From: an uncultured Nitrospiraceae bacterium
Lineage (GTDB): Bacteria; Nitrospirota; Thermodesulfovibrionia; Thermodesulfovibrionales; UBA6898
Reading direction: 5' to 3'
Assembly (NCBI GenBank): GCA_963811165.1
Contig: CAWEQH010000009.1
Location: 32,001 to 96,000, forward strand
Length of the DNA: 64,000 nt
Shown here: positions 4,489-61,024 of the stretch, one piece after another
Position numbering within the stretch: the stretch's first letter is position 1
Layout: each line of letters begins with the position of its first letter
The notes under the pieces: model-generated
What the model was told of the DNA's origin: nothing
Seen by the model: the letters and a program-made list of their open reading frames with translations, nothing else
Databases searched by the model: none
Made by a program: the position numbers and the translations under genes

Positions 4489-4629
4489 GGACAAGGCAGG
4501 CATAGTATTGTCGCTCATTCTCGGCCCCGATAAATCGGTGCCTCCGAGGCTTTTTCCTCTTTATATCAGAAAACTTTTGTGAGGAATATCGGCAAAAGAA
4601 ACCGCTCCGATACCATACCTGCCTTGTCC
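4489..4629. repeat. Structured dispersed repeat, copy A
   Basis: Terminal stem ggacaaggcagg/cctgccttgtcc enclosing cgctcattctcgg...ctccgaggc...aatat...gaaaccgctc. Confidence 0.85.
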
Positions 4630-4684
4630 CCCATTGGTCAGATCTAAACCAAGCTGTTGGAAAGGCCCAATTGCACCATCAACT

Positions 4685-4810
4685 ATGCATGAGGACAGCA
4701 TGCGAGCGGCTTCAGCGGCGCGTATTGCATCACCTTTCAGGTGATGCGCGACGGTGCCTCGGAGGTCGCTGCAGCGATCGAGAATGAGCGCGCGTGCTGT
4801 CCCCATGCAT
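4685..4810. repeat. Structured dispersed repeat, copy B (inverted relative to A)
   Basis: atgcatgaggacagca/tgctgtccccatgcat stem; core reads gagcggcttc...gtatt...gcctcggag...cgagaatgagc on +. Confidence 0.9.
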
Positions 4811-4862
4811 CAGTTCCTTATGCTGATTAAATAAGTCCGCCCCATGATTTAGGAGGTTAAGG

Positions 4863-5687
4863 CTATCGAGGCAGCGAAAACTCGACTTCCTGATTGCTGA
4901 CAGGACACGTGAATTTGAGCGATACGGCGGTCAGCTTCAGCCCTTCCGTATTCTTGTTCCCCTTTCCGTATTTCGGGTCCCCCATTACCGGATGTCCTAT
5001 CATTTCAAAATGCCTCCGGATCTGGTGCAGCCGCCCGGTCCGGATAATGATATCGACGACCGATGTATCTCTCACAGGGTCGTATGACAGGACCTGATAT
5101 TCCGTCAGTGCAGACTTGCCGTCGAGAGGAACCGCTATAGTGCCTCTCAGGTGATTTTTTCCAAAATCGCCGAGGACTTCGGCACGATATCTTTTTGTGA
5201 TCAGATTTCCTTGGAATATCTCGGAAAGTCTTGCAGCGGCCCGCCTGTTATGGGCTATAAGCATAATGCCGGACGCCTCCCGGTCGAGGCGATGGACGAG
5301 AAATACCTCTCTTTTCGGTTTGAAGAAGAGCTCCGCATGTCTCATAAGGGAACAATGATCGCCATACAGGGTACCCTGCGCCGTCATCCCCGGAGGCTTA
5401 TCCCATACACTATAATCTCCCCGGTCGCTTAGGCAGTCGGCAGAAGGAGATTTCAACGAAAGTATTTTTTCATCATAATGCAGTTCAATATGGTCTCCTT
5501 TTTTGAGGCCTGTGGTCGCCCTCCTCAGCCTGTTCATTCCGCCTTTCTTCCTTTTCAGCCAGACGGCACCCTTATTCATCGCATCCTTCACTTTACTTTT
5601 GGAGAGGCCGGATTTCGAAACAAGTAAGTCGGAGGCCGTTGCGTGCATATCCGAATCGAGGTCTATCTTTAGGTCTATTGTATTCAC
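4863..5687 (-). CDS. RluA-family RNA pseudouridine synthase
   Basis: DKPPG, HRLDREASG, TGRLHQIRRH, GHPVMGDPKYG. Confidence 0.93.
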   Translation of the reverse strand: MNTIDLKIDLDSDMHATASDLLVSKSGLSKSKVKDAMNKGAVWLKRKKGGMNRLRRATTGLKKGDHIELHYDEKILSLKSPSADCLSDRGDYSVWDKPPGMTAQGTLYGDHCSLMRHAELFFKPKREVFLVHRLDREASGIMLIAHNRRAAARLSEIFQGNLITKRYRAEVLGDFGKNHLRGTIAVPLDGKSALTEYQVLSYDPVRDTSVVDIIIRTGRLHQIRRHFEMIGHPVMGDPKYGKGNKNTEGLKLTAVSLKFTCPVSNQEVEFSLPR

Positions 5688-5855
5688 CGTTTAGTTTACC
5701 ATCATTAGGGGTTTTACCGGCCATTGAAGTCAAATCCGATTTGTGTTAGCATCTTTTATGTCCGGTCGATATCGTAATTAGCCGGACCGAAATACCGGAC
5801 TTGGATCAGAGGGAGAATCAGGGCCTGGACATTTCAAAGGAGGAGGAGATAATCT

Positions 5856-7070
5856 GTGGCTGAAGTCTATCACGCGCTGGGTCTTACCATGCATCAGCCG
5901 CTTGGAAACCTCCTGGAACTTCATAACTCCGGTGAATCCTGGGAGGCCAGTCAGATACTGTGGTGCTACGACAGGCCTACGCGGATGCTCGAAGGATATG
6001 AGGACGTGGCGCGGCTGCATATGAGTTTCTCGGGAACACTCCTGAAACAGCTCGAAGACCCTGCTGTCAGAGAGGCCTTTCACGATGTGGTAAACATACA
6101 CGATTTTATCGACCGCTACAAGCGGTCGAACATCGAGTTTACAGGCACCGGACTCTACCATCCCGTCTATCCCCTGACCCCCCCTTCGGACTGGGACGCC
6201 CACACATCCTGGTGGTTGGGGCTCGGACGTCATCTCCTTGGAAGGGAGCAATTCCAGGGGTTCTGGCCGCCTGAAATGGGTTTCTGCATGGAGATGATCC
6301 CGATGCTTAGGCGCCACGGATATCGCTATGTTGTTGTGGACTCTTGGTACATAAAACCGAAGCGGAAGATGAGATGGGAAGAGCTTCGGTACAGGCCGTA
6401 TATCGCACGCTATGAGGGAGAAGAGATTATTGTCGTGCCGCGGGACCGGGAACTCTCGGACGCCCAGGAATCGGGGCTGGATCCCGGATGGTTTCAGCAT
6501 GAAATATATGAAAGGACGAAGTGGTGCGACTTTCCGGCGCTCGTCACCACCTGGACAGACGGTGAAAACGGAGGCTGGTTCCGGACAACCCAGACGGAAA
6601 GCGGGTTCTGGGGCCACTTTTACCATGCCATCCTCAACAGGTACCGCGAAGGCACCCTCGGGTTTACGCCGATCCATATCAGCGAGTACCTCGACAAGTA
6701 CCCTCCGGAAGAAGAAGTGGAGGTGCATCGCGGTGCGTGGAACACGGGACACCACTGGGGCGGTGATTTCACGCAGTGGACAGGCTCACTCTTACAGAAA
6801 AGGGGCTGGGACGAGATACGTAATGCAAGCGCCTATTATCAGGCGGTGAAGAAACGCTTTGATAAATACAAGGGGAAGGCGTCTGACCCCGAGGAAGTCG
6901 GTCAGCTTATCGTAGAGGCATATGACCATATTCTTACCGCAGAGACCAGCTGTAATTTCTACTGGGGAAGCAGCTGGGTGCACCGTTCCTTCGATGGTCT
7001 TGAACAGGCATATTATCTTCTCGATACTGCTATGGGCCTGCTTAAGGGAAAAAAGGGCCGGAATGATTAA
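5856..7070 (+). CDS. Glycoside hydrolase family 57 protein
   Basis: HQP at N-terminus, SFSGTLL, FWPPEMG (nucleophile), TDGEN (acid/base), AETSCNFYW; strong RBS ggaggaggag. Confidence 0.85.
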   Translation: MAEVYHALGLTMHQPLGNLLELHNSGESWEASQILWCYDRPTRMLEGYEDVARLHMSFSGTLLKQLEDPAVREAFHDVVNIHDFIDRYKRSNIEFTGTGLYHPVYPLTPPSDWDAHTSWWLGLGRHLLGREQFQGFWPPEMGFCMEMIPMLRRHGYRYVVVDSWYIKPKRKMRWEELRYRPYIARYEGEEIIVVPRDRELSDAQESGLDPGWFQHEIYERTKWCDFPALVTTWTDGENGGWFRTTQTESGFWGHFYHAILNRYREGTLGFTPIHISEYLDKYPPEEEVEVHRGAWNTGHHWGGDFTQWTGSLLQKRGWDEIRNASAYYQAVKKRFDKYKGKASDPEEVGQLIVEAYDHILTAETSCNFYWGSSWVHRSFDGLEQAYYLLDTAMGLLKGKKGRND

Positions 7071-7163
7071 AAGAGTGACGACCGTGACCCTTCCAAGAAG
7101 ACCGGCCCATCGGTTATAATTTGGTAATCATCATTTTACTTTTATGATAGGAGGCCATGAGTT

Positions 7164-7955
7164 ATGAACCTTAAGCCGCTTCAAGACTGGGCCGTAATCA
7201 GAAGGTCCGAAGCCGACGAGAAGACCGCCGGCGGCATTATCATACCGGATACAGCGAAGGAGAAGCCCCTCGAAGGGGTGATTGTCGCGATCGGCCCGGG
7301 CAGATATAAGCTGGAAAAAGGGAAGGAAAAAGAGAAAAAGAAGAAGTTCTTCCCCACTGTTCTTAAACCGGGGCAGAAAGTCATTTACCAAAAATATGCC
7401 GAACGGGAAGTGGAACTGGGCAGCGAGGTTATCACTCTCGTCAGGGAAGAAGACATCCTCGGAACGGTAGAAGATTACGCTGTCGCCAATAGAAAGACGC
7501 ATGCCATAGAGGAGAAAAGGGAAGGGCCGGTAGCAATAAGGGAAAAGGCCCATGTCCCGGCGGTCACTCCCGCCAGGGTGTCCGGGAAAAAACCTTCCAC
7601 CGTCGAGAAAAAAACTCCGGAAAAGAAGCCGGCGGCAGTGAAGGGTAGCGCGTCTAAGAAAGCTGCGGCGAAACAGCCTGCGGAAAAGGCAACGAAAAAA
7701 ATCGTCGCGGAAAAGACGCAAAAGAAGGCACCAAAAAAGACATTACCTGTAAAGAAAAAGGCCGCTCCTCCGGCCATGAAATCCGTAGCCGGAAAGAAGG
7801 CGAAGGAAAAGGTCGTTGCCGGGAAACCGGCTGTAAAAAAGGCGGCCCAGCGTAAAACGACGAAGCCAGCGGCAAAGAAATCCGCAGTAAAAAAGATCGC
7901 TGTGAAAAAGATTGTGAAAAAGACATTGGCGAAGACCAAAGGCAAGAAGAAATAG
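7164..7955 (+). CDS. groES: GroES/Cpn10 domain fused to a long Lys/Ala/Pro-rich tail
   Basis: MNLKPLQD...EKTAGGIIIPDTAKEKP...VAIGPG...REEDILG, then ~150 aa KK/AAKK-rich low complexity; RBS aggagg. Confidence 0.85.
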   Translation: MNLKPLQDWAVIRRSEADEKTAGGIIIPDTAKEKPLEGVIVAIGPGRYKLEKGKEKEKKKKFFPTVLKPGQKVIYQKYAEREVELGSEVITLVREEDILGTVEDYAVANRKTHAIEEKREGPVAIREKAHVPAVTPARVSGKKPSTVEKKTPEKKPAAVKGSASKKAAAKQPAEKATKKIVAEKTQKKAPKKTLPVKKKAAPPAMKSVAGKKAKEKVVAGKPAVKKAAQRKTTKPAAKKSAVKKIAVKKIVKKTLAKTKGKKK

Positions 7956-7967
7956 AATCTGACTTCC

Positions 7968-7996
7968 GGGGGCTTGGAAAAGCCCCCTTTGTTTTT
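7968..7996 (+). terminator. Intrinsic terminator
   Basis: gggggctt-ggaa-aagccccc followed by tttgttttt. Confidence 0.75.
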
Positions 7997-8151
7997 ACCT
8001 CCTATGAAAGTTTTCTGTCGGAGTTTACCGCCCCCCGTTCTCTCTTTCGGCGCCTTCAACGTTTTGGTAATTTTTAAAAAGGCCGTTGCTTACATAAGAC
8101 GCTCTGCGAGTTGTAGACAGGGCACGAAAAGAATATCATCGCAATCAGGGT

Positions 8152-9339
8152 CTATTCGGTCTGCGTTCTCTCTTCGGGAGGCTGGTAAGTACATCCCATT
8201 TTTCCGCAGTAATGGCCGACGTATTCCGACTCGGGCCTGTAGAGGGCGGGTTTTTCCTGCGCCTCTGAGAACTTCTCCTCGATAATATGTGCGCACCAGC
8301 CGGCTATCCGGGAGACAGCAAAGAGCGGGGTCATGAGATCCACCGGTACGCCCATCATATGATATACAGAGGCGCTGTAAAAATCGCAATTAGGCTTTAT
8401 CGTCTTTTTTCCCCTTCTGTCGAATTCTTCGAGGGCGGCCTGCTCGACCTGGATCGACAGGTCATACCATTTCTTTTGCCCCAGTTTCTCCCCTAGTCTG
8501 CGCGACATCTCTCGAAGAATCGCGGCCCTGGGGTCCATCGTCTTATAGACCGCGTGTCCCATCCCCATGATTTTCCTGCCCTGATCGATCTCCTTCCTCA
8601 CCCACCCGGCGATGTCCTTTTCCTGTTCCAGTTCCATAAGCATCCTCATGACCCGCGCGTTGGCGCCGCCGTGCAGGCTTCCCGAAAGTGCCCCCACTCC
8701 GGCCGCCACTCCGGCATACATATGGGCCCTCGTCGACACCACCTCGCGGCAGGCAAAGGTCGATGCGTTAAAGGTATGGTCGGCGTGGAGGATAAGGCAG
8801 ACATCGAGGTCCCGGGCGATTTCGGGATCAGGCTTTCTTCCGTGCAGCTGCCACAGAAAGTTGCCTGCATGCGAAAGACCCTTGTCGGCAGGAAGCGGCT
8901 CAAGACCGTTTCTGATGCGGTGCCAGGCAGCGATGAGGACAGGGATTCTTGCGATTAATCTGATCGCCTTTCTTAAGTTCCCCTCCCGTGTCTCATCCGG
9001 CAGTTCAGGGTCGGCAATGGCAAGAAGGGGCACGGACGCCTGAAGCACGTCCATCGGGAGCGACTGTTTCGGCCATCTTCTGAATGAATCATAGATAAAA
9101 TCCGGTATCTCTCGTGACTCCTCTATCTGCCCGGTGAAAGATTTGAGCCGATCTTTATCCGGAAGCCCGTCATTGAGAAGCAGCCAGACAGTATCGGGAA
9201 AGGTGGACTTTTCTGCAAGGTCCTCTATCCGGTACCCGCGGTAGATAAGGACGCCTTGTTCTCCATCGATGAAACTGATCTTCGTATCGGCCACAGCGAC
9301 CCCGCGGAGGCCGGTATTTTTTATGCGGACTGTTTCCAT
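8152..9339 (-). CDS. gltA: Citrate synthase (or 2-methylcitrate synthase)
   Basis: GLRGV, LIYRGY, LHADHTFNASTF, GSLHGGAN, GMGHAVYK..DPR, PNCDFYS. Confidence 0.9.
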   Translation of the reverse strand: METVRIKNTGLRGVAVADTKISFIDGEQGVLIYRGYRIEDLAEKSTFPDTVWLLLNDGLPDKDRLKSFTGQIEESREIPDFIYDSFRRWPKQSLPMDVLQASVPLLAIADPELPDETREGNLRKAIRLIARIPVLIAAWHRIRNGLEPLPADKGLSHAGNFLWQLHGRKPDPEIARDLDVCLILHADHTFNASTFACREVVSTRAHMYAGVAAGVGALSGSLHGGANARVMRMLMELEQEKDIAGWVRKEIDQGRKIMGMGHAVYKTMDPRAAILREMSRRLGEKLGQKKWYDLSIQVEQAALEEFDRRGKKTIKPNCDFYSASVYHMMGVPVDLMTPLFAVSRIAGWCAHIIEEKFSEAQEKPALYRPESEYVGHYCGKMGCTYQPPEERTQTE

Positions 9340-9387
9340 TATTGTCGCTCCTTTTCCTTTATACCGGACATAATTCTCTGGGTTACG

Positions 9388-10350
9388 CTACCGCACCTCA
9401 ACCATAAAACTCAGGACTACAACTTTGCCGTTGTGCCCGACCTGGCTGAATACCTGGTAGAGACCCTTGGCCGGAAATACGACGGGCACATCGATTTCAG
9501 GTCCGAATTTTTTCGGGACGTTCATATGCATCATGTGCATCATATGTCCCATATGCTCATGTCCCATCGATGCCCCCGGCAACTCGCCGTGCTCGTGCAT
9601 AAAGTTTTCGAGGTCGGAAGAGATGATGGCAACATGCATAGGCGCCGCAAGATACGGTTCAAGGTCTGTGACCGGTTCGCCGTCTTTTCTGATCATATAT
9701 TTCAGGGTCGTCTCTTTCCCGGCGGTGATCGTTTCAGGGACAGTTGTAAGGGCCACCGATAAATCGCCGAACTTCTTGTTGCGGGAGAGATCTTTTGTAA
9801 AAAGACCCATCTTCGGTCCGCCTTCGACCGCCACAGTAAAATGTTCGGAGATGAGATTGTCCTTTGCCGCTGTGTCGAGGGCGATGATATAGCGTCCTGC
9901 CTTCGGAAAGGTGAAGCGCACCGGATATTCCGCCTTCTTCTTCATCTCATCCGTGATCGGCCAGAAATCGTCGGGGTGGATGTGGGCGAACACCGTAAAA
10001 TCTGCCGAAGCGATGACCACATGAACCAGGCGGTCGTGTGTGATCTGAAGGTCCTGGACCGGTTTGCCTTCGCGGTCCTTTATCGTAAAGAGCATCTTTG
10101 CCTCGGTCCCCGCCTTCAGCTCTGCAGGCACTGTCTTAAGGTCGACAACGACTTCGGAGGCCTTCATTATATGCATGTCCTTCATCTGCATATCTCCGTC
10201 ATGGGTGTTGTGGTGATGCTCGTGCATCGCCGGCATCTCTGAAAAAACGTAACCGCAGAAGAGCAGAGGCATAATTACGGCACCCATTACGACGACTTGC
10301 CGCAGACAGACAACGCGTCTTTTTAAAAAAATACTGATTCTGTTCGTCAT
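9388..10350 (-). CDS. Secreted His/Met-rich putative heavy-metal-binding protein (two YtkA-like domains)
   Basis: Signal/TM, MHEHHHNTHDGDM, FAHIHP, LEPYLAAPMH, MGHEHMGHMMHMMHM. Confidence 0.7.
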   Translation of the reverse strand: MTNRISIFLKRRVVCLRQVVVMGAVIMPLLFCGYVFSEMPAMHEHHHNTHDGDMQMKDMHIMKASEVVVDLKTVPAELKAGTEAKMLFTIKDREGKPVQDLQITHDRLVHVVIASADFTVFAHIHPDDFWPITDEMKKKAEYPVRFTFPKAGRYIIALDTAAKDNLISEHFTVAVEGGPKMGLFTKDLSRNKKFGDLSVALTTVPETITAGKETTLKYMIRKDGEPVTDLEPYLAAPMHVAIISSDLENFMHEHGELPGASMGHEHMGHMMHMMHMNVPKKFGPEIDVPVVFPAKGLYQVFSQVGHNGKVVVLSFMVEVR

Positions 10351-10434
10351 GAGATATCTCCTTGTGTAAATACGCTGATCTTAAATGGATTATATCATGC
10401 CAATTTTCGAACGCAAGATGATAAGTCAGCCGTC

Positions 10435-10555
10435 TGAGGACAGCATCCTTGCTCATTCTCGGTCCATCGAAGCTCCGGACCTCCGAGGCACCGTCGCGCA
10501 TCACCAATGTGGTGATGCAATACGCGCCGCTGAAACCGCTCGGATGCTATCCTCA
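10435..10555. repeat. Structured dispersed repeat, copy C
   Basis: tgaggacagcatcc/ggatgctatcctca stem; core very similar to reverse complement of copy B. Confidence 0.9.
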
Positions 10556-12923: not shown

Positions 12924-13056
12924 AAGAAGGGAGATCGTCTTTTCGCTCATTCTCGCCCGCCCGCCTGAGGCGGGCAAGCTCCGAGGCAATTTCTCGATCC
13001 GCCCGTGTCGGATCAATACGAGAAATTGAAGCCGCTCAAAGACGATCTCCCTTCTT
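12924..13056. repeat. Structured dispersed repeat, copy D, flanked by 8-bp direct repeat catttgtg
   Basis: Perfect 19-bp terminal stem aagaagggagatcgtcttt/aaagacgatctcccttctt; catttgtg at 12916-12923 and 13057-13064. Confidence 0.9.
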
Positions 13057-13183
13057 CATTTGTGCGATGCCGGAATAAAGTTTGTGAATTGTATGGGCGG
13101 TATTCCCCTTGCGGTCCTGCACTATGGCTTGACAACCATCCCCTTGTCGTATAAATTAACCCAAAAAACCAAGGAGGACAGGA

Positions 13184-13603: not shown

Positions 13604-13631
13604 GTAGGGGCACATTGCAATGTGCCCCTAC
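13604..13631. repeat. GTAG-type REP-like palindrome
   Basis: Perfect 28-bp palindrome gtaggggcacattgcaatgtgcccctac between convergent genes. Confidence 0.75.
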
Positions 13632-13647
13632 AGCCACTGTTTTTTTG

Positions 13648-16600
13648 TCATTCCGCCGCAGTCTGTTCTTTATGATGCTCTGCAGCGACCAACATATAGA
13701 TGGAGGGCACCACAAAGAGGGTAAAGAGGGTGCCTACGAACATGCCTCCTACCAGCACAAGACCGATTGAGTTACGGGCGGCTGCGCCGGCCCCGGTGAC
13801 GAGGGTCAGGGGAAAGTGACCGGCAATGGTGGCGGCGCTTGTCATCAGGATCGGCCGCAGTCGTGTCATTGCTGCTTCACGCACTGCCTCAAGCTTGGGG
13901 TGGCCCTCCAATTGCAGCCGGTTGGCAAACTCCACGATCAGGATTCCGTTTTTGGACACCAGTCCGACCAAAGTTACCAGTCCGACCTGGGAGTATATGT
14001 TTAGAGTGGTAGTCCAGCCGCGCGTCCAGAAGGGGACGTTGGGGTCCGGCATCTTCAGGAAGGTGAAGAGCAGCGCTCCGAACATGGCCAGCGGCACCGA
14101 ACCCGCCAGGATGACAAAGGGGTCGCGGAAGCTGTTGAACTGGGCGGCCAGCACCAAAAATATCAGGATGACTGCCAGGCCAAATGCAGGGAGAAACTTG
14201 TTTCCCTCGGTGCGCAACTGGCGTGACTCTCCGGTATAGTCGATGACATACCCTTTGGGCAGGATCTTCGCTGCCTCGTCCTCAAGGTAGCGGAGTGCCT
14301 CGTCAAGCGGCCGCACCGCCACGCCGCTAATCTTGACTGCGTTTAGCTGCTGGAAGCGGTTGAGGGAACGGGGCACGACAGAATCGCGAAGTGTGGCGAT
14401 GGTGTTAAGCGGGATCAGCTTGCCGCCCGGGCCGGTGACATAGATATTCTGGAGTTGCTCCGGGTTAAGGCGTCCGATCCGCTCGATCTGGGGAATTACC
14501 TTGTAGCTTCGGCCGAAGATGTCGAAGCGATTGACGAAGTCCCCCCCACCATGCCTCCCAGGTCGCCGCCAATCTGCCCTAGGTTGAGCCCCAGGTCTGC
14601 GACCTTGTCGCGGTCTATGAGGAATTCCGACTGGGGTTGGTCGATCTTGACATCGATCTGAGGCGGGAAGGCGAACATGCCGCTTTGAATGGCCTTCATT
14701 TGCAGTTGGTGTGCGAAATCGAGGATCTGTCCGGCCTCGGCGGTCGATGCCAATATGAATTCGACAGGAAACTGCCCGCCTCCCGGCAGCGCAGGCGGTG
14801 TCACAGGGAAGATCTGGATGCCGGGGATCTTCTGCAACTTCTGCTGGACCTCGGGCATGATCTGGAAGATGTTTCGTTTGCGCTTGTCCCAGGGCTTGAC
14901 CACCATGCCTCCGAAACCAGAATTGGGGAAGGTGATCTGAAAGGTGAAGTCGGTCTCGGGCACACTCATGAAGGCCCGGTTTACCGCCGCTGCGTAACGT
15001 GTGTTTTGATCGAGGGTGGAGTTGGCCGAGGCATCGAGGATGCCGAAGATGACGCCCTGGTCCTCGGTCGGCGCCAGTTCCTTGGCGGACATCCTAAACA
15101 TCGGCACGGTCAGCAGGGAGATAATGATCCAGACCGTGTAGACCGCGGGACGGACATTGAGGGTGGCGGTGAGCAATCTGCCGTATGTTTCCCTCAGGCG
15201 TGTGAAGTCATGCGAGATGCGGCCGGCCAGGCCGTGCTCCCCGGCGCCAGGTTTAAGCAGTGTGGCTGACATGACCGGAGAAAGGGTCAGGGCCACGATC
15301 CCCGAGATGGTGACGGCACCCGCGAGGGTGAAGGCGAACTCCTTAAACAGAGAGCCTGTCAATCCCCCCTGCAGACCTACGGGGAGATAGACCGCCGCAA
15401 GCGTGACGGTCATGGCGATGATCGGCCCGACCAGTTCGCGGGCGCCAAGCAGGGCGGCCTCTAGGGCCGATTTTCCGGTCCGCAGGTGGCGCTCGACATT
15501 TTCGACCACAACAATGGCGTCGTCGACAACCAGTCCGACAGAGAGGACGATGGCCAGAAGGGTGAGCAGGTTCACCGTAAAGCCGAAGGCCTGCATCAGG
15601 AATACCGCGCCGATAAGTGAGACCGGGATGGCGACTACCGGGATGAAGACCGACCGGAAGGAACCGAGGAAGAGGAATATGACGACGACCACGATCATCA
15701 GCGTGTCACCGAGGGTCTTGAGCACCTCGTGGATGGCGTTGGTAATATAGTCGGTAGCGTCGTAGGCGACACGGGACTGCATGCCGCTTGGCAGGTCCCG
15801 CTGAATGGACGCCATCTCGGTCTTCACCCGCTTGATAACGTCCACGGAATTGGCGTTAGGAAGAGGCCAGATCCCCATAAAGACGGCTGTCTGCCCCGAG
15901 AAGTGGACCTCTGAGTCGTAGTCCTCGGCCCCGAGGACCACGTCGGCGATGTCTGAAAGACGCACGATGGCGCCGTTTTGGTCACGCACGGCAAGCTGTT
16001 TGAACTCCCCGACCGTCTTCAGGTTTGTATCGGCGGTCAGGTTGACCTGGATGTAGACGCCTTTGCTCTGGCCGAGGGCGGCAAGGAAGTTATTGGCAGC
16101 CATGGCCTGGCGCACCTGGACAGGGCTGATGTTAAGGGCGGCCATCCGCTCAGGCTTGAGCCATATGCGCATGGCAAAGGTGCGGGCTCCCAGTATGTCG
16201 GCCCGCTGCACCCCGTCGATGGCCGCGAGGCGCGGCTGGACAATGCGCACCAGGTATTCGGTGATCTCATTCTGTTTCAGAATGTCCGAGGTGAAGCTGA
16301 GGTATGCCGAGGCGAACTGGCTGTCAGCCGACTCGATGTTGATCGCAGGCACCTCGGCCTCGGGCGGGAGATCACGGCGTACCTGGTCAACCTTCGAACT
16401 GATCTCGGCAAGTGCCTTGGTAGAGTCGTAGTTGATCTTGAGTCGCACCTTGATGGTCGAGAGCCCGAGCGTGCTCTGAGACTCCATGTACTCGATGCCG
16501 TCGGCGGCTGCGATGGTACGCTCAAGAGGGGTGGTGACGAACCCACGCACCAGTTCGGCGCTGGCTCCGACATAGACTGTGGTAACCGTCACCGCCGCGT

Positions 16601-21894: not shown

Positions 21895-22460
21895 GATGTT
21901 TTATCGCGGTGGCCCTGCCCGGACCGCTGAAGAGGGCTGTCGGGGAGGTCATATTAAAGCTCAAAGAATCCGGGGCCGACATCAAGTGGGTGCCTTATGA
22001 AAACCTCCACCTTACGCTCAAATTTCTAGGTGCTACCGGGGAGGAGCTCATAGATGAGATAAAGGGTGCGCTCAATAAAAAATTGTCCCATTACGCCCCT
22101 TTTTATATTAAAATAGGCGGCGTCGGGTATTTTCCCGGAGGAAGAACCCCGCGCGTAATATGGGTGGGAATCGAAGAACCGGGGTCCCTTGCGGACATCT
22201 GCGCGGATGTTGAGAATGTGATGGTGAAATTTGGTTATCCTCGGGAGGAGAGGCCATTTTCACCCCATCTGACGATCGGAAGGGTACGGTCTCCAAAGAG
22301 GGTCGCAGAGGTGACCAGGAGACTCGAGGGATTCCGCACCGTCGCTTTTGATGAATTCATGGTAAAGGAAGTGACTTTGATGAAGAGCGAACTTAAACCC
22401 GGCGGGGCGGAATATTCCGGCCTTGCCGAAATATCTTTGGAGGGGAAAAATGACGATTAA
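21885..22460 (+). CDS. thpR: RNA 2',3'-cyclic phosphodiesterase
   Basis: Two HxT motifs: [15 protein letters not shown]. Confidence 0.93.
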
Positions 22461-23473
22461 GGAGACCAGTAAAGAGATGAATAAGGACAAGCTTAAGGCC
22501 CTCGAGATGGCGATTTCACAGATCGAGAAGAATTTCGGGAAGGGGTCGATCATGCGGCTCGGGGAAGATGGTGTGGTGGAAGGTGTGCAGTCTATCCCGA
22601 CCGGCTCGCTCACGCTCGATATCGCAACGGGGATAGGGGGTCTTCCCAGGGGCCGGGTTGTAGAGATCTACGGACCGGAGTCTTCAGGGAAAACAACGCT
22701 TGCGCTGAATGCGATAGCACAGGCGCAGAACGCCGGCGGGGCAGCCGCATTTATCGACGCCGAGCATGCGCTTGACGTGAATTATGCGAAGAGGATTGGG
22801 GTGAAGATCGAAGACCTCCTGGTCTCGCAGCCCGATACCGGTGAACAGGCGCTCGAAGTGGCCGAAGCGCTTGTCCGAAGCGGGGCACTCGATATTATCG
22901 TGATCGACTCGGTCGCCGCGCTTGTACCCAAGGCGGAGATCGAGGGAGACATGGGAGATTCCCTTCCGGGCCTGCAGGCCAGACTCATGAGCCAGGCGCT
23001 CAGGAAGTTGACTGCCTCGATCTCAAAGTCGAACACGACGGTGGTCTTCATCAATCAGATAAGGATGAAGATAGGGGTAATGTTCGGAAGTCCGGAGACG
23101 ACGACCGGCGGAAACGCGCTCAAATTTTACGCCTCGATGAGGCTCGATATCAGAAGGATCGAAAACATCAAGGACAACCAGGAGATCATAGGCGGCAGGG
23201 TCAGGGTCAAGGTCGTCAAAAACAAGATGGCCCCGCCCGTTTCGGCAGGCCGAATTCGACATACTTTTCAATCTCGGTGTTTCGAGGGAGGGTGAGATCG
23301 TCGACCTCGGCGTCGAGAAAGGGATCATCGAGAAGGCAGGCGCCTGGTACAGTTACGGCGGCAACAGGATCGGCCAGGGCAGGGAGAACGTGAAAGAGTA
23401 TCTGAGGAACAATGTCCCTGTTGCCAAAGAAATAGAGGAGAAGATCACCGAGGCAGCGAATCTCAAGAAATGA
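22450..23473 (+). CDS. recA: Recombinase A with one extra base near 23236-23238
   Basis: [31 protein letters not shown]; removing one C restores [11 protein letters not shown]...AGAWYSY...IGQGRENV to TGA at 23473. Confidence 0.95.
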
Positions 23474-23489
23474 CCTCAAGGAGACAGGT

Positions 23490-24632
23490 ATGGATATCAA
23501 CGAGCTTTTAAAATCGGCCCATTCGATGGGGGCTTCGGATGTACACCTGAAGGTGGGGTCCCAGCCTATCGTCAGGGTCAACGGTCAGCTTGGTCCCATA
23601 CCGGGAAACAGACTCAGCCAGGAAGAGACGCTGAAAATAGCTTTTTCCGTAATGAGCCCCGGGCAGAGGGAGACATTCAAGAAGAAAAACGACATCGACC
23701 TTGCCTACAGCGTGCCGGGACTCGGACGTTTCAGATGCAATATATTCATCCAGAGAGGGACGATAGGTCTCGTGTTCAGGGTAATCCCGATGAGAATCCC
23801 CACCATAGAGGAACTGCTGCTGCCGGAGATCATCAAAAAGATCTCCATGGAGCCGCGCGGACTCATCCTTGTTACGGGCACCACCGGAAGCGGCAAGTCC
23901 ACTACCCTGGCCGCGATGATAGACAATATAAACAGCACCAGGACCGACCATATCATGACGATCGAGGACCCGATCGAGTATCTTCACAGGGACAAGAGGT
24001 CCATCGTAAACCAGCGGGAGGTCGGCAACGATACCGAATCCTTCAGCAAGGCGCTGAGGGCCGCCCTCAGACAAGACCCTGACGTAATCCTCGTCGGGGA
24101 GATGAGAGATTTTGAGACGATCCAGACCGCCCTTACCGCTGCCGAGACGGGACATCTCGTCCTGAGCACGCTGCATACGATCGATTCGACCGAGACAGTC
24201 AACAGAATAATCTCTGTTTTTCCGCCCTACCAGCATAAGCAGGTAAGGATGCAGCTTGCCTCGGTCCTGAAAAGCATTATCTCGATGAGGCTGGTCCCGA
24301 AAGAAGACGGCAAGGGGAGGGTACCTGCGGTGGAGGTCCTTATCGCGACCGCGATGATAAAAGACTGTATACTCGATCCTGACAAGACCAAGATGATACC
24401 GGACGTGATCGCCCAGGGCACGGTCCATTACGGCATGCAGACCTTCGACCAGTCGCTCTTTAGCCTTTTCAAATCGGGGTTAATCTCCTATGAAGAGGCC
24501 CTCAGAAGGGCCACCAACCCTGATGATTTTGCGCTGAAGGTCAAAGGCATACAGTCCACGAGCGACCTGGCCTATGACGACTCGCCCCGACCTGACAAGG
24601 AAGAAATGAAGATTGACAGATTCGCGCAGTGA
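23490..24632 (+). CDS. Type IV pilus retraction ATPase, PilT/PilU family
   Basis: GTTGSGKSTT, TIEDPIE, LRQDPDVILVGEMRD, AETGHLVLSTLH; lacks the canonical AIRNLIRE. Confidence 0.93.
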   Translation: MDINELLKSAHSMGASDVHLKVGSQPIVRVNGQLGPIPGNRLSQEETLKIAFSVMSPGQRETFKKKNDIDLAYSVPGLGRFRCNIFIQRGTIGLVFRVIPMRIPTIEELLLPEIIKKISMEPRGLILVTGTTGSGKSTTLAAMIDNINSTRTDHIMTIEDPIEYLHRDKRSIVNQREVGNDTESFSKALRAALRQDPDVILVGEMRDFETIQTALTAAETGHLVLSTLHTIDSTETVNRIISVFPPYQHKQVRMQLASVLKSIISMRLVPKEDGKGRVPAVEVLIATAMIKDCILDPDKTKMIPDVIAQGTVHYGMQTFDQSLFSLFKSGLISYEEALRRATNPDDFALKVKGIQSTSDLAYDDSPRPDKEEMKIDRFAQ

Positions 24633-46300: not shown

Positions 46301-46597
46301 AAGGAAGAAAGGATGAAGACCGTGGCCGACCTTGACGATGCGATCATGCACGGGGCGGTAAAGAGGATACGGCCGAAGCTTATGACCGTCGGTGTTATCC
46401 TCGCCGGCCTTATCCCGATCATGTTCAGCCACGGTGCCGGCTCAGACGTCATGAAGAGGATCGCGGCGCCGATGATCGGCGGTGTCGTCACTTCAGAAAT
46501 CCTGGAGCTGACTATATATCCTGCTATCTATAAGATATGGAGGAGAAGGGAGCTGACGCCGGCTGATCCAAATCCACCATCAAAAATATCTGCATGA
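43349..46597 (+). CDS. cusA: CusA/CzcA heavy-metal efflux RND permease
   Basis: LDAIPDLSDTQVI, GTDIYWARSRVLEY, GAMVDA, FYMP, ATDPAPLEMFET, RIRPKLMT. Confidence 0.95.
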   Translation: MISKIIEYSARNKFIVFLTVGFLIVWGIWAIKNIPLDAIPDLSDTQVIIFTDWPGRSPDLVENQVTYPITSTLLAAPKVQAVRGFSFLGSSFIYVIFEEGTDIYWARSRVLEYIDSVKGKLPSGVSPVLGPDATSLGWGFSYAVVDETGGHDLSQLRSIQDWNIKLALESVQGVSQVASVGGFVKQYQVNIDPNRLAAYNVPIMKVVDAVRASNKDVEGRVVEFSGAEYMVRGRGYIRNVQDIENISVGTNGAGSPVLVRDVATVQLGPDMRRGIAELDGKGEVAGGIVVVRFGENVLNVIERVKAKIAKDIQPSLPKGVRIVTTYDRSDLIHRSIETLREEIIKLSIAVSVVCLVFLFHLPSALVVILTLPVSIVISFICMYYLGVTSNIMSLGGIAIAIGAMVDASIIMVENAHKKMEEWICDGRRRCSRTDVIIDAAKEVGPSLFFSLLVITVGFLPVFTLQAQAGRLFKPLAFTKTFAMLFASFLAITLTPVLMDLFIRGNIKPEGENPIVKFLGKFYKPRVHFSLRHSWPIVIVAMLIVTITGIIFIFPMFGITVLPSVKLGSEFQPPLNEGTLFYMPVTVPGASVSEASRLLVMQDRLLKTIPEVSQVFGKAGRAETATDPAPLEMFETVVNLKPESQWRKGMDVDTLKNEINDVLTIPGVSNTITMPIKARIDMNATGMKTNVGVKVIGPKLDEIERVSKQVEDAIKDIPGTRSTYAERVGTGYFLDIIPKREEIARYGLSINDVQDVVETSLGGMNVTTTVEGRERYPVNVRYMRELRNDIEKIKRILVPVTLSTGPSGGPSGMGGPVQAEAADRIPLGEIADISLIKGPTAIKSEEGLLANYVYVDYSGGDLGGYVEAAMKKVASAVKLPEGYRLLWSGEYEYIVKMHERLKTVIPLTLVIIFVLLYFNTKSVTKTFIVLLAVPFSLVGSFWFLYFLNYNMSIAVWVGMIALAGLDAETGVVMLLYLDLAYEQWKKEERMKTVADLDDAIMHGAVKRIRPKLMTVGVILAGLIPIMFSHGAGSDVMKRIAAPMIGGVVTSEILELTIYPAIYKIWRRRELTPADPNPPSKISA

Positions 46598-46705
46598 GGA
46601 TGGCACCGTTGCGCGTCACCGCGAAGGCGATACAATACGCGCCGCTGAAACTGTAGTGTCCTCATTTGATTGGGACACTGCCAACCGCTCTGATGCCGTC
46701 CCTCA
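46595..46705. repeat. Structured dispersed repeat, rearranged copy G
   Basis: ggcaccgttgcg...caatacgcgccgctgaaac matches B/C; left arm missing; hairpin inserted before accgctc. Confidence 0.75.
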
Positions 46706-55140: not shown

Positions 55141-55372
55141 TAATAGAGTAAAGACCCTTCTTTTCCTTTTTTTCCTCTTTGTGCGTGCCGCTCTTTTCCA
55201 TTAGTATCTGGCCTTCCTTCGTCATATCCTTGTTGTCCAACATCTATACTGTCTGGAAAAAGAGGTTATGTCATGATACAGTGTAATAAGAATTTGGCTT
55301 AAGTATATCGGCTGAACTTTGTGAAGGCATCCGGAGTTGACCCCAGGACGTTTGTCAAAAAAGGAGGTTCTT

Positions 55373-56434
55373 ATGAAAAGCTCGCTGAGTAGAAGGGATT
55401 TTTTTCGAAGGGCCGGGGTAGGCGCTTTGGGATTAGGGTTCGGCGTTTCTCTTTTTGACGGGATATATGAGTATGCCGAGGCGGTCACAGAGGAGGAAAA
55501 ACATGCCCTTCTCATGAAAGGTTCCGTAAATTTTATGGGGTTTGTGGCCAAGGAAATCACCCCAAATGATGAATTCTATATCACAACCTACTCCGATAAG
55601 GTGCCTGTAGTCGACCCAGGGAGATTCAGTTTAAGGATCGAAGGCCTCGTCGAAAAACCTTATACGCTCTCGCTTAAAGATCTCGAAGAGATGAAGGACA
55701 AGACGGAGTTTGTCACGCTTGAGTGTATCGGCAATCCGATCGGAGGAGATGCCATCAGCAATGCGCTCTGGGACGGCGTAACTTTGAGAAAGATCATAGA
55801 GAAATCTGTTCCCAGGAAAGGGATTGTGAAGACCGCATTTTATGCCGAGGATGGTTACAGCGACAGCATCCCCTATTCTTTGTCTCTTTCAGAAGATGTA
55901 TTTCTCGCATACAGGATGAATGGGGAGCCCTTACCCAGGAAGCACGGCTATCCTCTGAGGGCGATAGTCCCGGGCATTTATGGAATGAAGCACGTCAAAT
56001 GGCTCTCGAAGATAGAGCTCGTTAATTATGATTTTAAGGGGTACTGGGAAAAAAGGGACTGGTCCGACGAGGCGGTTATTCCGGACAAGTCGCAAATCCT
56101 TATGCCGATGGAGGGAAAGAAGATACCGCTCGGCAATTATGTCATCGGCGGCGTTGCATTTGCCGGACGGTATGGAATAAGCAAGGTGCAGGTCTCCCTC
56201 GACAACAAAAAAACGTGGCACGATGCGGCGTTGAAGCCTCCGCTTTCGAAATGGTCATGGACGCTATGGAGCTACAACTGGATGCCCTCAAAGGCCGGGG
56301 AGTATACGATAACCGTCCGGGGTATCGACAGAGCAGGGAAAGTCCAGGAGTCTTCCTCTCTCTTAGGAAAATTATTCCGGTCATTCCCTGACGGTGCAAA
56401 GGGACTTCACTCGGTTAACGTTACAGTCAGGTAG
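55373..56434 (+). CDS. Tat-exported sulfite-oxidase-family molybdoenzyme
   Basis: SRRDFFR; TLECIGN, MNGEPL..HGYPLR, GMKHVKW, GYWEKR; C-terminal dimerisation domain. Confidence 0.9.
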   Translation: MKSSLSRRDFFRRAGVGALGLGFGVSLFDGIYEYAEAVTEEEKHALLMKGSVNFMGFVAKEITPNDEFYITTYSDKVPVVDPGRFSLRIEGLVEKPYTLSLKDLEEMKDKTEFVTLECIGNPIGGDAISNALWDGVTLRKIIEKSVPRKGIVKTAFYAEDGYSDSIPYSLSLSEDVFLAYRMNGEPLPRKHGYPLRAIVPGIYGMKHVKWLSKIELVNYDFKGYWEKRDWSDEAVIPDKSQILMPMEGKKIPLGNYVIGGVAFAGRYGISKVQVSLDNKKTWHDAALKPPLSKWSWTLWSYNWMPSKAGEYTITVRGIDRAGKVQESSSLLGKLFRSFPDGAKGLHSVNVTVR

Positions 56435-56518
56435 GCGGGATAACGACGGGGGAATCCGTCAAGATGTGATGACGCGTTGTTTCAGCCCGGCCTTGCGCCA
56501 CATCGGTTATAATTAACC

Positions 56519-57835
56519 ATGTCGAAAGAATTGATCGTAGTCGGAGGCGGGCTTGCGGGTTCCGAGGCTGCATGGCAGGCGGCACGGAGGGGGATAAAGG
56601 TCACCCTCTACGAGATGAGGCCCGGTAAGATGACCGAGGCCCACAAGACGGGGGACCTAGGTGAATTGGTCTGCTCAAACTCCCTCAGGTCGAATGATCT
56701 CTACACCGCGCCGGGACTTCTGAAACGGGAACTTTCGTTGGCCGGCTCGCTTATTATGGAGGCCGCAGAGTCGTCTGCGGTTGCGGCCGGTTCGGCGCTT
56801 GCCGTAGACAGAAATATCTTTGCCGCATTTATTTCCAGGAGGCTTTTTGATAATCCCGGCATCGAGATCATAAGAGAGGAGGTCGTTGCACTGCCGGAAA
56901 GACCTGCGGTGATCGCTACAGGGCCGCTCACCTCTGAATCGATGGCTGGTTCCCTATCGGCATTACTGGGCGGTGAGCATCTCTATTTCTACGACGCCAT
57001 TGCCCCGATTATCGATACCGAGTCTATCGACTACGAAAAGGTCTTCAGGGCTTCGCGGTACGGCAAGGGCGGCGACGATTATATCAACTGCCCGATGAAT
57101 AAAGAGGAATATGAGGCCTTTTATGATGCCCTTACCGAGGCCGACAGGGTGACGCCCAGGGAGTTTGAAAACCAGAGGGTCTTTGAGGGGTGTATGCCTA
57201 TCGAGGTAATGGCGTCGAGGGGAAAGGAGACGATCCGCTTCGGGCCGATGAAGCCGGTCGGTCTCTTAGATCCGAAGACGGGCAAGGAGCCTTATGCGGT
57301 GGTCCAGCTGAGGGCGGAAAATAGGGGATTGACCTCGTATAATATGGTCGGTTTTCAGACGCGTCTGAAATGGCCTGAACAAAAGAGGGTGTTCCGGATG
57401 ATCCCGGGACTCGGGCAGGCTGAGTTTCTGAGGTTCGGCAGCCTTCACCGAAATACGTTCATCAACTCCCCTCTTTTTCTCAACGGGGACCTCTCGTTTA
57501 AAAACAGGGATAATATCTATGTCGCCGGGCAGATATCCGGTGTCGAAGGGTATATCGAATCAACGGCGATGGGACTTATTGCGGGAATCAACGGGTCCCG
57601 CAGGTTGACCGGCAAGGACACAATAACGGTGCCGCCCACGACTGCGCACGGGGCGCTGATACGGCATATCGCCGGATCCGAGGGCAAGAACTTCCAGCCG
57701 AGCAATATCAACTTCGGGCTGTTCAGTATGTCTGACGAAATCCTGAAGATCAGGGACAAGAAAAAGAGGAAGACGGCTGTTGTCGAGAGGGCGCTTGAGG
57801 ACTGGGAAGAATACGTAGAGAAGGTGGTTCCGTGA
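56519..57835 (+). CDS. trmFO: FAD/folate-dependent tRNA m5U54 methyltransferase
   Basis: GGGLAGSEAAWQ, ELVCSNS, FEGCMPIE, AGQISGVEGY. Confidence 0.96.
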   Translation: MSKELIVVGGGLAGSEAAWQAARRGIKVTLYEMRPGKMTEAHKTGDLGELVCSNSLRSNDLYTAPGLLKRELSLAGSLIMEAAESSAVAAGSALAVDRNIFAAFISRRLFDNPGIEIIREEVVALPERPAVIATGPLTSESMAGSLSALLGGEHLYFYDAIAPIIDTESIDYEKVFRASRYGKGGDDYINCPMNKEEYEAFYDALTEADRVTPREFENQRVFEGCMPIEVMASRGKETIRFGPMKPVGLLDPKTGKEPYAVVQLRAENRGLTSYNMVGFQTRLKWPEQKRVFRMIPGLGQAEFLRFGSLHRNTFINSPLFLNGDLSFKNRDNIYVAGQISGVEGYIESTAMGLIAGINGSRRLTGKDTITVPPTTAHGALIRHIAGSEGKNFQPSNINFGLFSMSDEILKIRDKKKRKTAVVERALEDWEEYVEKVVP

Positions 57836-57866
57836 AGGGGAGGGAAAGGGGCAGCCTTTTAGAGAA

Positions 57867-58759
57867 ATGATGTCTGACATGAAAGGGCATATCGGCAATT
57901 TTCTGAGGTATCTCGACCTCCAAAAAGGGGCCTCGGCCCATACGTTGAGGGCCTACGGGAAGGACCTTGAAGAATTCGACGAATTCGTAAAGAAGGGACC
58001 CGAAGAGGTCGAGATGATCGACGTGAGGGCGTTTGTCGCCCGGCAGATAAAAAACGGGCTCAACAAGACAACCGCCGGAAGGAGGCTTGCGGCGGTACGT
58101 TCTTTCCTGAAGTATCTTTACCGGGAAGGATATATCAAGGCGAACCCTGCAAAGTTTGTGTCGACCCCAAAGACCCAAAAACTCCTCCCGAAGTTTCTGA
58201 CTGTCGATGAGACTTTTTCTCTCGTCGAACAGCCTAAGGGCATAGGCTTTATGCGGGCAAGGGACAGGGCCATCCTCGAACTTCTCTATTCAAGCGGTCT
58301 GAGGGTAAGCGAGGTTGCAGGTCTCACCATGGAAGACGTCAATACGAGGGAAGGGTTGGTTAAGGTAAAAGGAAAGGGCAAGAAGGAGCGTATTCTCCCT
58401 GTCGGATCAAAGGCGGTCGACGCAATGAAATCATACCTGGTTGAAAAAATGCTTCTTAAGCGCAGAAACAAGGCCGTATTCCTAAACAACAGGGGGAAAA
58501 ACTCTCCGACAGGGGCATACGAAGGATAGTCGTGAAATATGCAAAGCAGGTCGGGATCAGCGGCAGTATAGGTCCTCATACGATGAGGCATACCTTCGCA
58601 TCGCATCTCTTGCAGTCCGGCGCGGACCTCAGGGTGATCCAGGAACTTCTCGGCCATTCCTCACTCTCTACCACGCAAAAGTATACCCACCTCGATATTA
58701 CCCATTTGATGGACATCTACGACAAGGCACACCCGCTCTCTTCCAAAGACGAGGATTAG
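57867..58759 (+). CDS. xerC: Tyrosine recombinase XerC, one base missing in G5A5 run (58492-58501)
   Basis: [33 protein letters not shown]; second frame [13 protein letters not shown]...QELLGH...TTQKYTH. Confidence 0.9.
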
Positions 58760-58779
58760 GACAAAATCGTATCGTGAGA

Positions 58780-58902
58780 AGGAGGCAACCATCTTCTCTC
58801 TTATTCTCGCTACGCTCCGAGGCACTTTCTCGCCCGCCGATGGCAAAAACAGGGCGGGGGTGAATACGGGAAAGAGAAGCCGTTCGAAGATAGTTACCCC
58901 CT
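58780..58902. repeat. Structured dispersed repeat, copy E (diverged)
   Basis: aggaggcaaccatcttc/gaagatagttaccccct stem; attctcg...ctccgaggc...aatacg...gaagccgttc. Confidence 0.8.
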
Positions 58903-59017
58903 GCATCCGTGCCGGGAAGAGCGCGAAGTATATCAATAGGGTTGGTTAGATCGTATAATGTAATGACATACCCTATCGGCTTTTTGTAATATAACGGATT
59001 ACCCAAAAGGAGAAATC

Positions 59018-59548
59018 ATGTTTCACGCTACGACAATACTCTGCATAAGCAGAAAAGGCAAGGTTGCAATAGGCGGTGACGGGCAGGTCACTATGGGCAG
59101 TACGGTGCTGAAGCACAATGCCAGGAAGATACGAAAGATGTATGGCGACAAGGTGATCGGAGGCTTTGCCGGCGCCACGGCCGATGCCTTTACTCTGTTC
59201 GAAAAATTCGAGGGAAAGCTCGAGTCATACAGGGGCAACATCACGAGGGCGGCTGTGGAACTCGCCAAGGACTGGAGGACCGATAAAGTGCTCAGGCGGC
59301 TTGAGGCCCTGCTGATCGTTGCGGACAAGGAGCATATCTTTATCATATCGGGAAACGGTGATGTCATCGAGCCCGAAGAAGGCATCGCTGCAATCGGCTC
59401 GGGCGGCCCCTATGCCCAGGCCGCTGCAAAGGCGCTTACTGAAAATACCGATCTGGACGTCACGGAGATACTTCAAAAGGCGATGAAGATCGCGGCGGGC
59501 ATCTGCATCTATACGAACGAGAATATCTACATCGAGGAGCTGGCATAG
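59018..59548 (+). CDS. hslV: ATP-dependent protease subunit HslV
   Basis: [23 protein letters not shown]. Confidence 0.97.
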
Positions 59549-59549
59549 C

Positions 59550-60887
59550 ATGGACACCCTTACACCAAGGAAGATCGTTGAAGAGTTGAATAGGTTCATC
59601 ATCGGACAGGATAACGCGAAGAAGGCGGTCGCGGTCGCATTGAGGAACAGATGGAGAAGACAGAGGCTCGCTCCCGACCTTAAAGATGAAGTGCTTCCGA
59701 AAAATATTATCATGATCGGCCCGACCGGCGTCGGAAAGACCGAAATTGCGAGAAGGCTGTCGAAGCTCGCCAACGCCCCTTTCATGAAGGTCGAAGCGTC
59801 GAAGTTTACCGAGGTGGGTTATGTGGGACGAGATGTCGAATCGATGATAAGGGACCTCACCGAGATCTCCGTTAATATGGTGAAGGCCGAGCACCTCGAA
59901 AAGATAAGGGAAAAGGCCAAGCGCCTGGCTGAAGAGAGACTGCTTGACCTCCTGCTGCCCCAGCAGCGGGTCACGAGGACAGAGGTTGATGAACAGGAGA
60001 GAGAGCGGACCAGGGAGACCCGAGAGAGGCTGAGGGAGCAGCTGCGAAGCGGCAAGCTCGATGCGCGCTATGTGGATGTCGAGGTCAGGGAGAAGACTAT
60101 GCCTTTTGGGGTGATCTCGAACGTCGGACTCGAGGACCTCGAAATGAACCTTAAGTCGATGCTCGGCAACCTGCTTCCGGAGAAGTCGAAAAGGAAAAAG
60201 GTGAAGATCCCCGAGGCACTTGTGTTACTTGAGCAGGAGGAGTCGAATAAACTGATCGATATGGACAAGATCACTCAGGATGCGGTCGAGCGTGTCGAGC
60301 AGACCGGGATTGTTTTCCTCGATGAAATTGATAAGATCGCGTCGAAGGGCGGCGGCTATGGCCCTGATGTATCGAGGGAAGGGGTACAGCGGGACCTTCT
60401 GCCGATTGTCGAGGGCTCGACGGTGACGACGAAATACGGGCCGGTCAGGACAGAGCACATACTTTTTATCGCCTCCGGGGCTTTTCATATGACGAAACCT
60501 TCGGACCTTATCCCGGAGCTTCAGGGCAGGTTTCCGATACGTGTTGAGCTCGAACCCCTGGGCAAGGCCGAATTCAAAAGGATCCTGACCGAACCCCATA
60601 ACGCACTCGTCAGGCAGTATACAGCTTTGCTTGCCACGGAAGAAGTGGAAATCAATTTTCTCGACGAATCGGTCGACGAGATAGCCGAGATCGCGGCCCT
60701 CGTCAACGACAAGACCGAAAACATAGGCGCAAGAAGGCTGCACACCATACTCGAAAAGCTGCTGGAAGACATTTCCTTCGAGGCGCCCGAGAAGCCCCAT
60801 ACAAAACTCAATATCGACAGAACATATGTCAGGGAAAAACTGACCGATATCGTGAAGGACGAGGACCTGAGCCGATATATCTTGTAG
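59550..60887 (+). CDS. hslU: ATP-dependent protease ATPase HslU
   Basis: [41 protein letters not shown]. Confidence 0.97.
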
Positions 60888-60909
60888 CTCGTTTTCTTAT
60901 ACTGCGGAT

Positions 60910-61024
60910 AAGGAAGGAGATAGTATTCTCGCTCATTCTCGGTCCGCTTAGGCGGACCTCCGGGGGCTTTTCTCCCGATACTGACCGGGATAAAAGAAGC
61001 TGCTCGAATACCATGCCCTTCCTT
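60910..61024. repeat. Structured dispersed repeat, copy F
   Basis: aaggaaggagatagtattc/gaataccatgcccttcctt stem; tcgctcattctcgg...ctccgggg...gaagctgctc. Confidence 0.85.

Follow-up and report, generated by a model that had tools for sequence, protein, structure and literature searches.

A structured three-stem module, likely an RNA, carried by miniature transposons in Nitrospirota and other phyla

A 64-kb stretch from an uncultured Nitrospiraceae bacterium (assembly GCA_963811165.1, contig CAWEQH010000009.1; hereafter the window) holds seven copies of an intergenic element built around a core of three stems, P1, P2 and P3, joined by conserved linkers. The core is a structured module borne by miniature inverted-repeat transposable elements (MITEs), and it is likely an RNA. 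In our reading, to which we give a probability of about one half, the MITE-carried core folds on one strand and would serve as an RNA scaffold, and CsrA, in hosts that have it, is predicted to bind its hairpin tips. The MITE part alone, taken for the family as a whole, is very probably correct. No description of the core was found in a full-text literature search, which did not extend to the supplement defining the TwoAYGGAY motif (PMC2864571).

Occurrence of the core

With six window copies combined into a profile, 45 matches are found in the 3.66-Mb source genome (G000), 43 of them at E<1e-4, and a later profile gives 42. Six of the seven window copies are among the 45; the broken copy at 46595 is not. 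Of 41 related genomes, 13 contain the exact linker pattern, whereas a reversed control pattern matched none. The 3' half of the pattern was sought in 301 genomes of the phylum and occurs in 38, almost all of which fall within one order. Among the 80 listed titles of at least 122 stretches, core-bearing genomes belong to Thermodesulfovibrionales and other Nitrospirota, Desulfobulbaceae, Desulfobacterales, Latescibacterota, and one candidate phylum, and the unpaired linkers are kept across phyla. One match in the genome collection (L018) and two in viral contigs were rejected as chance, and a plasmid search returned nothing matching over 80% of the core query. The Rfam scan of the window gave no family at the gathering score and only weak hairpin matches by E-value, and cmscan of 14 loci gave no family match to the core. 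The family, in which the original prediction had recognised no known consensus, thus stays unmatched in the window and the loci scanned.

Transposon shells

IS1380-type ends: In young copies from related genomes, 17-bp terminal inverted repeats lie 20-40 bp outside P1 and are bordered by 4-bp target duplications. Where the ends survive, the mobile unit is a non-coding MITE of the DDE type, about 160-210 bp long. In a set of 231 distinct copies, both ends are of type 1 in 53, of type 2 in 7, and of type 3 in 4, while 48 copies have a single end and 119 have none; these counts are not to be read as frequencies, because 40 loci were fetched for having one end. Of 2000 random genome windows, none showed both ends and 171 showed one. 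The 4-mers flanking the type-1 ends are identical in 24 of the 53 copies, against 7.6 on shuffling (maximum 16). Type-1 ends also close intact insertion sequences (ISs) of the IS1380 family of about 1650 bp (NF033539, 406 bits), and four of five such elements lie within an exact 4-bp duplication. Type-2 ends correspond to the right ends of two further copies that carry the IS1380 transposase domain PF13701. The PF01609 elements of five genomes were considered as a parent and rejected, as they carry neither the core nor the ends.

IS66-type ends: In a Desulfobacterales genome (G482), the same core sits inside a young 195-bp MITE that shares its ends and its 8-bp duplication with an IS66 element (NF033517). 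In seven of 13 copies of this MITE the duplication matches at 7 or 8 of the 8 bases. One 13-base IS66-type end has 154 matches in G482 and 189 in G485, a very large recent MITE burst.

Other shells and cargo: The core also occurs in at least four more shell types with unassigned ends (L492, L510, L459, L474, L012, L493, L429), such shells being seen among 119 metagenome matches. IS1380-type and IS66-type ends also enclose other structured cargo (L204-L207, L213, L558, L573, L594-L597), among it a pair of CGTC-type palindromes and another module made of several hairpins.

The original prediction had set the family apart from MITEs on the ground that its termini are not conserved. The inverted repeats, the target duplications and the empty site of copy F (below) contradict this, and the claim is wrong for the family because the repeats and duplications lie 20-40 bp outside P1, where the predicted bounds stop short of the element ends, and are eroded in this genome. 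Among 36 copies of the source genome, both ends are recognisable in 3, one end in 11, and none in 22. The source genome has no match to PF13701, which is found in 15 of the 54 genomes of its family, and its core copies are therefore likely stranded.

Copies in the window and in sister genomes

The seven stretches were all found where the original prediction placed them, and the layout P1-GAGCGGYTTC-P2-GCCTCGGAG-P3-CGAGAATGAGCGA-P1' can be read on one strand of them. The copy at 46595 is indeed rearranged: its GAGCGG is followed by an inserted hairpin, and both P3 and the 3' linker are gone. The three copies that resemble one another are those at 4685, 10435 and 46595 (B, C and E) rather than B, C and G, and the copy at 60910 carries another P2 type. 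The GTATT bulge is present in some subtypes and is not a family-wide feature. The terminal repeats in the window are eroded or single only, and the window copies are likely aged insertions of the MITEs described above. Their features are as follows.

4489-4629, minus strand: copy A core (P1, linkers, P2 with an AT-rich loop, P3), after the stop of the Smr-domain gene
4667-4683, plus strand: copy B terminal repeat, type-2, eroded; the same motif closes the IS1380-family copies L226 and L241
4685-4810, plus strand: copy B core, paired back to back with that of A where two genes converge
10435-10555, minus strand: copy C core, P2 type as in B, ends unrecognisable
12924-13056, minus strand: copy D core
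13081-13097, minus strand: copy D terminal repeat, type-1 (IS1380-like), eroded
46568-46585, plus strand: copy E terminal repeat, type-2, intact
46595-46705, minus strand: copy E, B-type core minus P3 and the 3' linker
46653-46681, plus strand: hairpin with a GTAG tag, which PMC3733652 gives as a mark of repetitive extragenic palindromes (REPs), inserted into the 5' linker of copy E
58756-58759, plus strand: copy F left target duplication, TTAG, 4 bp
58760-58945, minus strand: copy F whole element, 186 bp (core 58780-58902), one end type-1-like, the other eroded
58946-58949, plus strand: copy F right target duplication, TTAG, 4 bp
60910-61024, minus strand: copy G core

Comparison with two sister genomes, G002 and G006, gives the history of several sites. 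The 186 bp of copy F lie between two TTAG sequences, and G002 has an empty site with a single TTAA; alternatively, that empty site could result from precise loss between the duplications. Copy A stands at the same site in both sisters, with 132 of 141 positions identical in G002 and 130 of 141 (92%) in G006; four-fold sites of its neighbour genes are 67-73% identical in G002 and 37-54% in G006 (three genes). The P2 loop of copy A was seen at that site only, and it is kept across species. Copy B is mostly deleted or decayed in G002 and G006, copy C has a matching G006 site without the core, and copy D is absent from the matching G002 site. At the site of copy G, the G002 core has a different P2.

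For 35 copies of G002 traced in the source genome, 12 sites are shared, 18 are without a full core in the source genome, and 5 could not be placed. Among the 18, the difference is 180-207 bp at seven sites, and remnants are left at two. Copies at shared sites often differ in their P2 or P3 module or even in subtype, suggesting that copies have exchanged parts or that insertion has recurred. A back-to-back core pair in the source genome (contig C10, 1123048-1123371) stands in swapped order relative to L137 of G002, as if inverted by recombination between two cores.

Fold, covariation and strand bias

RNA folding of the linker strand, the strand on which the layout above is read, gives z-scores of -2.6 to -7.5, and this strand has the lower energy in six of six copies, both as RNA and as DNA. 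In a set of 24 hand-picked copies, 24 of 31 pairs changed on both sides, and 87% of cells pair compared to 38-49% with the partners slid; P1, P2, and P3 all covary. The covariation is therefore real, and the earlier observation that the stems differ and still pair holds. P1 mismatches are G-T in 299 cases and A-C in 68 across 194 copies (53 and 15 in the 32 copies of the source genome alone), so that a strand bias first counted by hand is confirmed in a larger set. Such strand-specific mismatches support selection on a single-stranded fold of one strand, as originally proposed.

In five young families (48 copies), the variant states in P1 are G-T 33, A-C 13, compensated 17, and other 27, these being small numbers from related copies. 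The same families show no strand bias in the terminal repeats and spacers, and the bias is therefore not a mutation bias. Variants per site amount to 0.28 inside P1, 0.38 in the ends, and 0.69 in the spacers. Distinct isolated mismatches are G-T 76 versus A-C 22, G-G 11 versus C-C 1, and T-T 15 versus A-A 5, with a difference between G-A (19) and C-T (11) that is not significant. Judged by energy rules, this spectrum leans somewhat towards RNA over DNA.

About 28 bases of the junction are near-invariant around freely exchanged stems, an invariance that the search patterns partly force. In 119 metagenome matches selected on the 3' half alone, the 5' linker is within one mismatch in 94. A 20-bp perfect palindrome and other hairpins of 20-30 bp are inserted at fixed points of the core, often directly after CGA (source genome; L006, L470, L608, L611). 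The palindrome occurs at four places in the source genome (8 strand matches), one of them inside an open reading frame (ORF), and these inserts are a separate class of tiny insertions.

The core could also be functionless, its covariation arising from arm-to-arm template switching and gene conversion between copies. The differing modules at shared sites, the decay of copy B in two sister genomes, and the patchy occurrence in the phylum (38 of 301 genomes) agree with this. However, the strand-specific mismatch spectrum is missing from the ends and spacers, the unpaired linkers are conserved across phyla, and the site-specific loop of copy A is preserved across species, which makes a functionless core quite improbable.

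GGA loops and csrA

The binding consensus of CsrA is ruACArGGAugu, placed in a loop (PMC5694010). In a manual tally, GGA stands at the P3 tip in 32 of the 34 copies of 9 genomes that have csrA, and in 3 of the 225 copies of 13 genomes without a csrA match, two of those three being GGA triloops. A GGA loop in P2 is found in 25 of 60 GGA-type copies and in 11 of 142 others. Matches to csrA occur in 48 of 111 genomes of the order, in 0 of 10 genomes in each of three core-bearing families, and in 0 of 54 genomes of the source genome's own family. Beyond this order, csrA is present in four genomes whose cores have GGA loops, and the candidate-phylum genome lacks both the loops and csrA. The loop type goes with csrA, a suggestive association, and in csrA-bearing hosts the hairpin tips are predicted CsrA-binding sites. 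None of the window copies has a GGA loop. In the source genome's family, where no csrA was found, small hairpins of other kinds form the tips and the junction remains conserved, so the junction needs a partner or a role beyond CsrA.

The core resembles the hairpins bound by CsrA and RsmA (PMC5694010) in that each element has one or two short stems with GGA in their loops. In contrast to them, it is dispersed in transposons and is not part of a small RNA gene, the window copies lack GGA, and binding is only predicted.

Evidence weighed against the proposed RNA scaffold and its shells

Several observations weigh against this reading. On the side of the shells, the 119 copies with neither end make up about half of the 231, the core was in none of 41 IS1380 loci (30 and 11; core sought unsplit), and 5 of the 18 empty sites differ by merely 104-145 bp, which is about the length of the core alone. 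On the side of CsrA, a RecA tree of 41 genomes has the label changing twice, and a single csrA-less origin is not rejected (p-AU, the approximately unbiased test, 0.11); two csrA-bearing GGA genomes sit among csrA-less ones with weak branch support. The csrA-GGA link thus amounts to one to three independent events only and is suggestive, not proven. In addition, 33 of 65 GGA loops lack the CA(N)GGA form, and csrA-bearing genomes are often coreless (core in 0 of 11 genomes of family f10 and 1 of 8 of family f3).

Three further points bear on RNA itself. The linker strand is antisense to the gene on its 3' side in 108 cases and sense in 53 (23 and 13 for GGA-type copies); read-through would therefore often yield the other strand, which argues against simple read-through. 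Among the sequencing runs listed for the element, none was an RNA dataset. The P3 loops of the csrA-less group (n=217) include 65 GNA triloops, 5 GNRA loops, and 1 UUCG loop, and are DNA-like. Moreover, the linker strand and the negative-skew strand coincide in 28 of 42 copies versus 9, regardless of the direction of the neighbour gene, which indicates an effect at the DNA level.

A possible single-stranded DNA signal for primosome assembly

The last two points suit an alternative that keeps the MITE shells and makes the core a folded single-stranded DNA, similar to a primosome-assembly site, which would recruit PriA for copying or repair of the element. Motifs of such kind may be single-stranded DNA (PMC5737381). 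The minimal 3' half, GAG-CGNAG-CGAG-AA-TGAGCGA, recurs in ColE1 at 1332-1354 with a 4-base spacer, downstream of the origin. From its position this would be the ssiA site, for which the available parts of PMC5935869 and PMC3167613 give no coordinates. The pattern is rare, with 31 loci in 2.9 million viral contigs, 5 of them ColE1-like, and priA was found in five of five genomes tested. The known PriA sites (ColE1 ssiA and phiX174 pas; PMC3167613, PMC5778457) have in common with the core an 18-base 3' motif shared with the ColE1 stretch, a mini-hairpin, and tandem GA; GNA triloops and tandem GA pairs occur in the core, and the replication-strand bias of 28 versus 9 fits as well.

On the other hand, the family profile matches neither the ColE1 nor the phiX174 site. 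The core differs in its 5' half, and both this half and P2 are absent from the ColE1 likeness; P1 and P2 are long, P3 is mostly longer than the minimal ColE1-like form, and the copies are many and chromosomal. The folding strand is mainly the leading-strand template, the less exposed of the two. Transposase peptides of IS1380 and IS66 bind the beta clamp, with little orientation bias reported for these families (PMC3971601), and this binding may account for the orientation of the core. The primosome alternative also leaves the loops that follow csrA unexplained, and we consider it unlikely.

A possible ribozyme

The antisense excess bears on another possibility, which the original prediction had raised, namely that the junction belongs to an unrecognised class of ribozymes, acting in self-cleavage or processing, and that its antisense placement would spare host mRNAs. 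The near-invariant junction bases around exchanged stems and the G-T bias on the linker strand are compatible with it. However, no Rfam ribozyme family model matched in the window and the loci scanned, circular permutation was not found (two candidates were chance neighbours), and a clear gain for a DNA transposon is wanting, so that a catalytic junction appears very doubtful. By eye, hammerhead, hairpin ribozyme, and k-turn gave no fit.

A possible REP-like unit with an HUH nuclease

The original prediction had also offered a folded DNA substrate for an HUH-type transposase. In this form the core would be a unit akin to REPs and bacterial interspersed mosaic elements (BIMEs), with its own HUH or other nuclease, that landed in MITEs and was then amplified by them. 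Outside Nitrospirota many copies stop at P1 and have unrelated sequence beyond it, the core itself takes up GTAG-tagged hairpins as insertions, and CGTC-type REPs likewise have no known transposase (PMC3733652). The likeness to GTAG and CGTC REPs, BIMEs, and REPINs (PMC3733652, PMC6006769) extends to intergenic position, palindromic form, G-T pairing, and inverted pairs. Unlike them, the core has neither a GTAG nor a CGTC tag at its ends, forms a three-way junction instead of one hairpin, lies in shells with terminal inverted repeats, and has no adjacent gene for a REP-associated tyrosine transposase. No partner was found for it: the Y1 transposase family PF01797 has no match in the source genome and Y1 none in G001, and the core was in 0 of 50 loci around Y1 or GIY-YIG genes, with only 30 of the listed Y1 matches sampled. 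Clustering of neighbour genes revealed no recurring mobile gene beside 314 core sites, and no Y1 gene flanked by copies was seen in these samples. Core-less MITEs resemble hairpin deletions rather than empty targets. An independent REP-like origin is accordingly most unlikely.

Comparison with other known systems

DDE MITEs: Bacterial MITEs of DDE insertion sequences include RUP, NEMIS/Correia, ERIC, and YPAL (PMC3733652). The present elements share with the MITEs described there a length of 70-300 bp, short terminal inverted repeats, the lack of genes, target duplication, a position beside coding sequences, and strong folding. In contrast, a single core occurs in shells that belong to at least two transposase families, its sequence varies less than that of the ends, and the autonomous ISs examined lack it.

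TwoAYGGAY: In csrA-bearing lineages the core resembles this motif (RF01731; PMC2864571) in its two GGA-loop hairpins, some of them ATGGAT or ATGGAC. A search with RF01731 matched 0 of 5 genomes, with control genomes unmatched too, and cmscan of the 14 loci and the window gave none. The loops of the core are often of CAGGA or CYGGA types, and the family is defined by the invariant GAGCGG, CCTCGGAG and GAGAATGAGCG linkers and persists without GGA loops. No AYGGAY loop occurs in the window copies, and elsewhere such loops are a minority of the GGA type. The motif name GGAM was not found in PMC6429828.

Proposed mechanism and meaning

Under the RNA scaffold reading, transposases encoded elsewhere would move the shells in trans, nesting and recombination would let different ends take up the core anew, and P2 and P3 would be swapped between copies. 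The linker strand would be transcribed, and the near-invariant junction would hold two hairpins in place for a protein. The scaffold would present these hairpins as CsrA sites where CsrA exists, and the junction may have a second role. A bolder version, which is possible and no more than tentative, takes the core as an old RNA three-way-junction module with its own activity, as a protein dock or a catalyst. Such a module would have been recruited repeatedly by unrelated transposon ends across at least four phyla, spreading CsrA sites, swapping its loops on loss of csrA, and being kept by the host at some sites.

The interiors of MITEs are usually taken as remnants of a parent IS; here, the interior outlasts the ends in conservation and appears to pass from shells of one transposase family to those of another. 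Should the CsrA reading be true, transposons spread ready-made regulator sites, adapted to the regulator set of the host, in phyla unstudied for it. In its invariant junction the core offers a candidate for a new activity, whether of RNA or of single-stranded DNA.

Neighbouring genes and assembly

The Smr-domain ORF beside copy A (window 4132-4440, plus strand) is a real gene; the longer ORF opposite it (4078-4479, minus strand) has no family match, and its start is not preserved in G002. A GTAG-type REP-like hairpin follows the stop of osmC at 13604-13632, and a type-1 MITE with the core adjoins the matching site in G002. Several window genes look split, as happens when an assembly is error-prone. 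The match of recA (22423-23581), which seems frameshifted, covers only profile positions 1-253 in one frame, near whose end stands a run of four C's, and the frameshift may be an assembly error. The RND permease ORF at 13648-14376 (minus strand) contains just the C-terminal part of its profile, and xerC at 57867-58529 (plus strand) covers only the first 213 of 295 profile positions. Elsewhere in the source genome, contigs C2 and C3 repeat parts of C1 (570828-610858) at 93-97% identity, as strain variants or related prophage-like regions.

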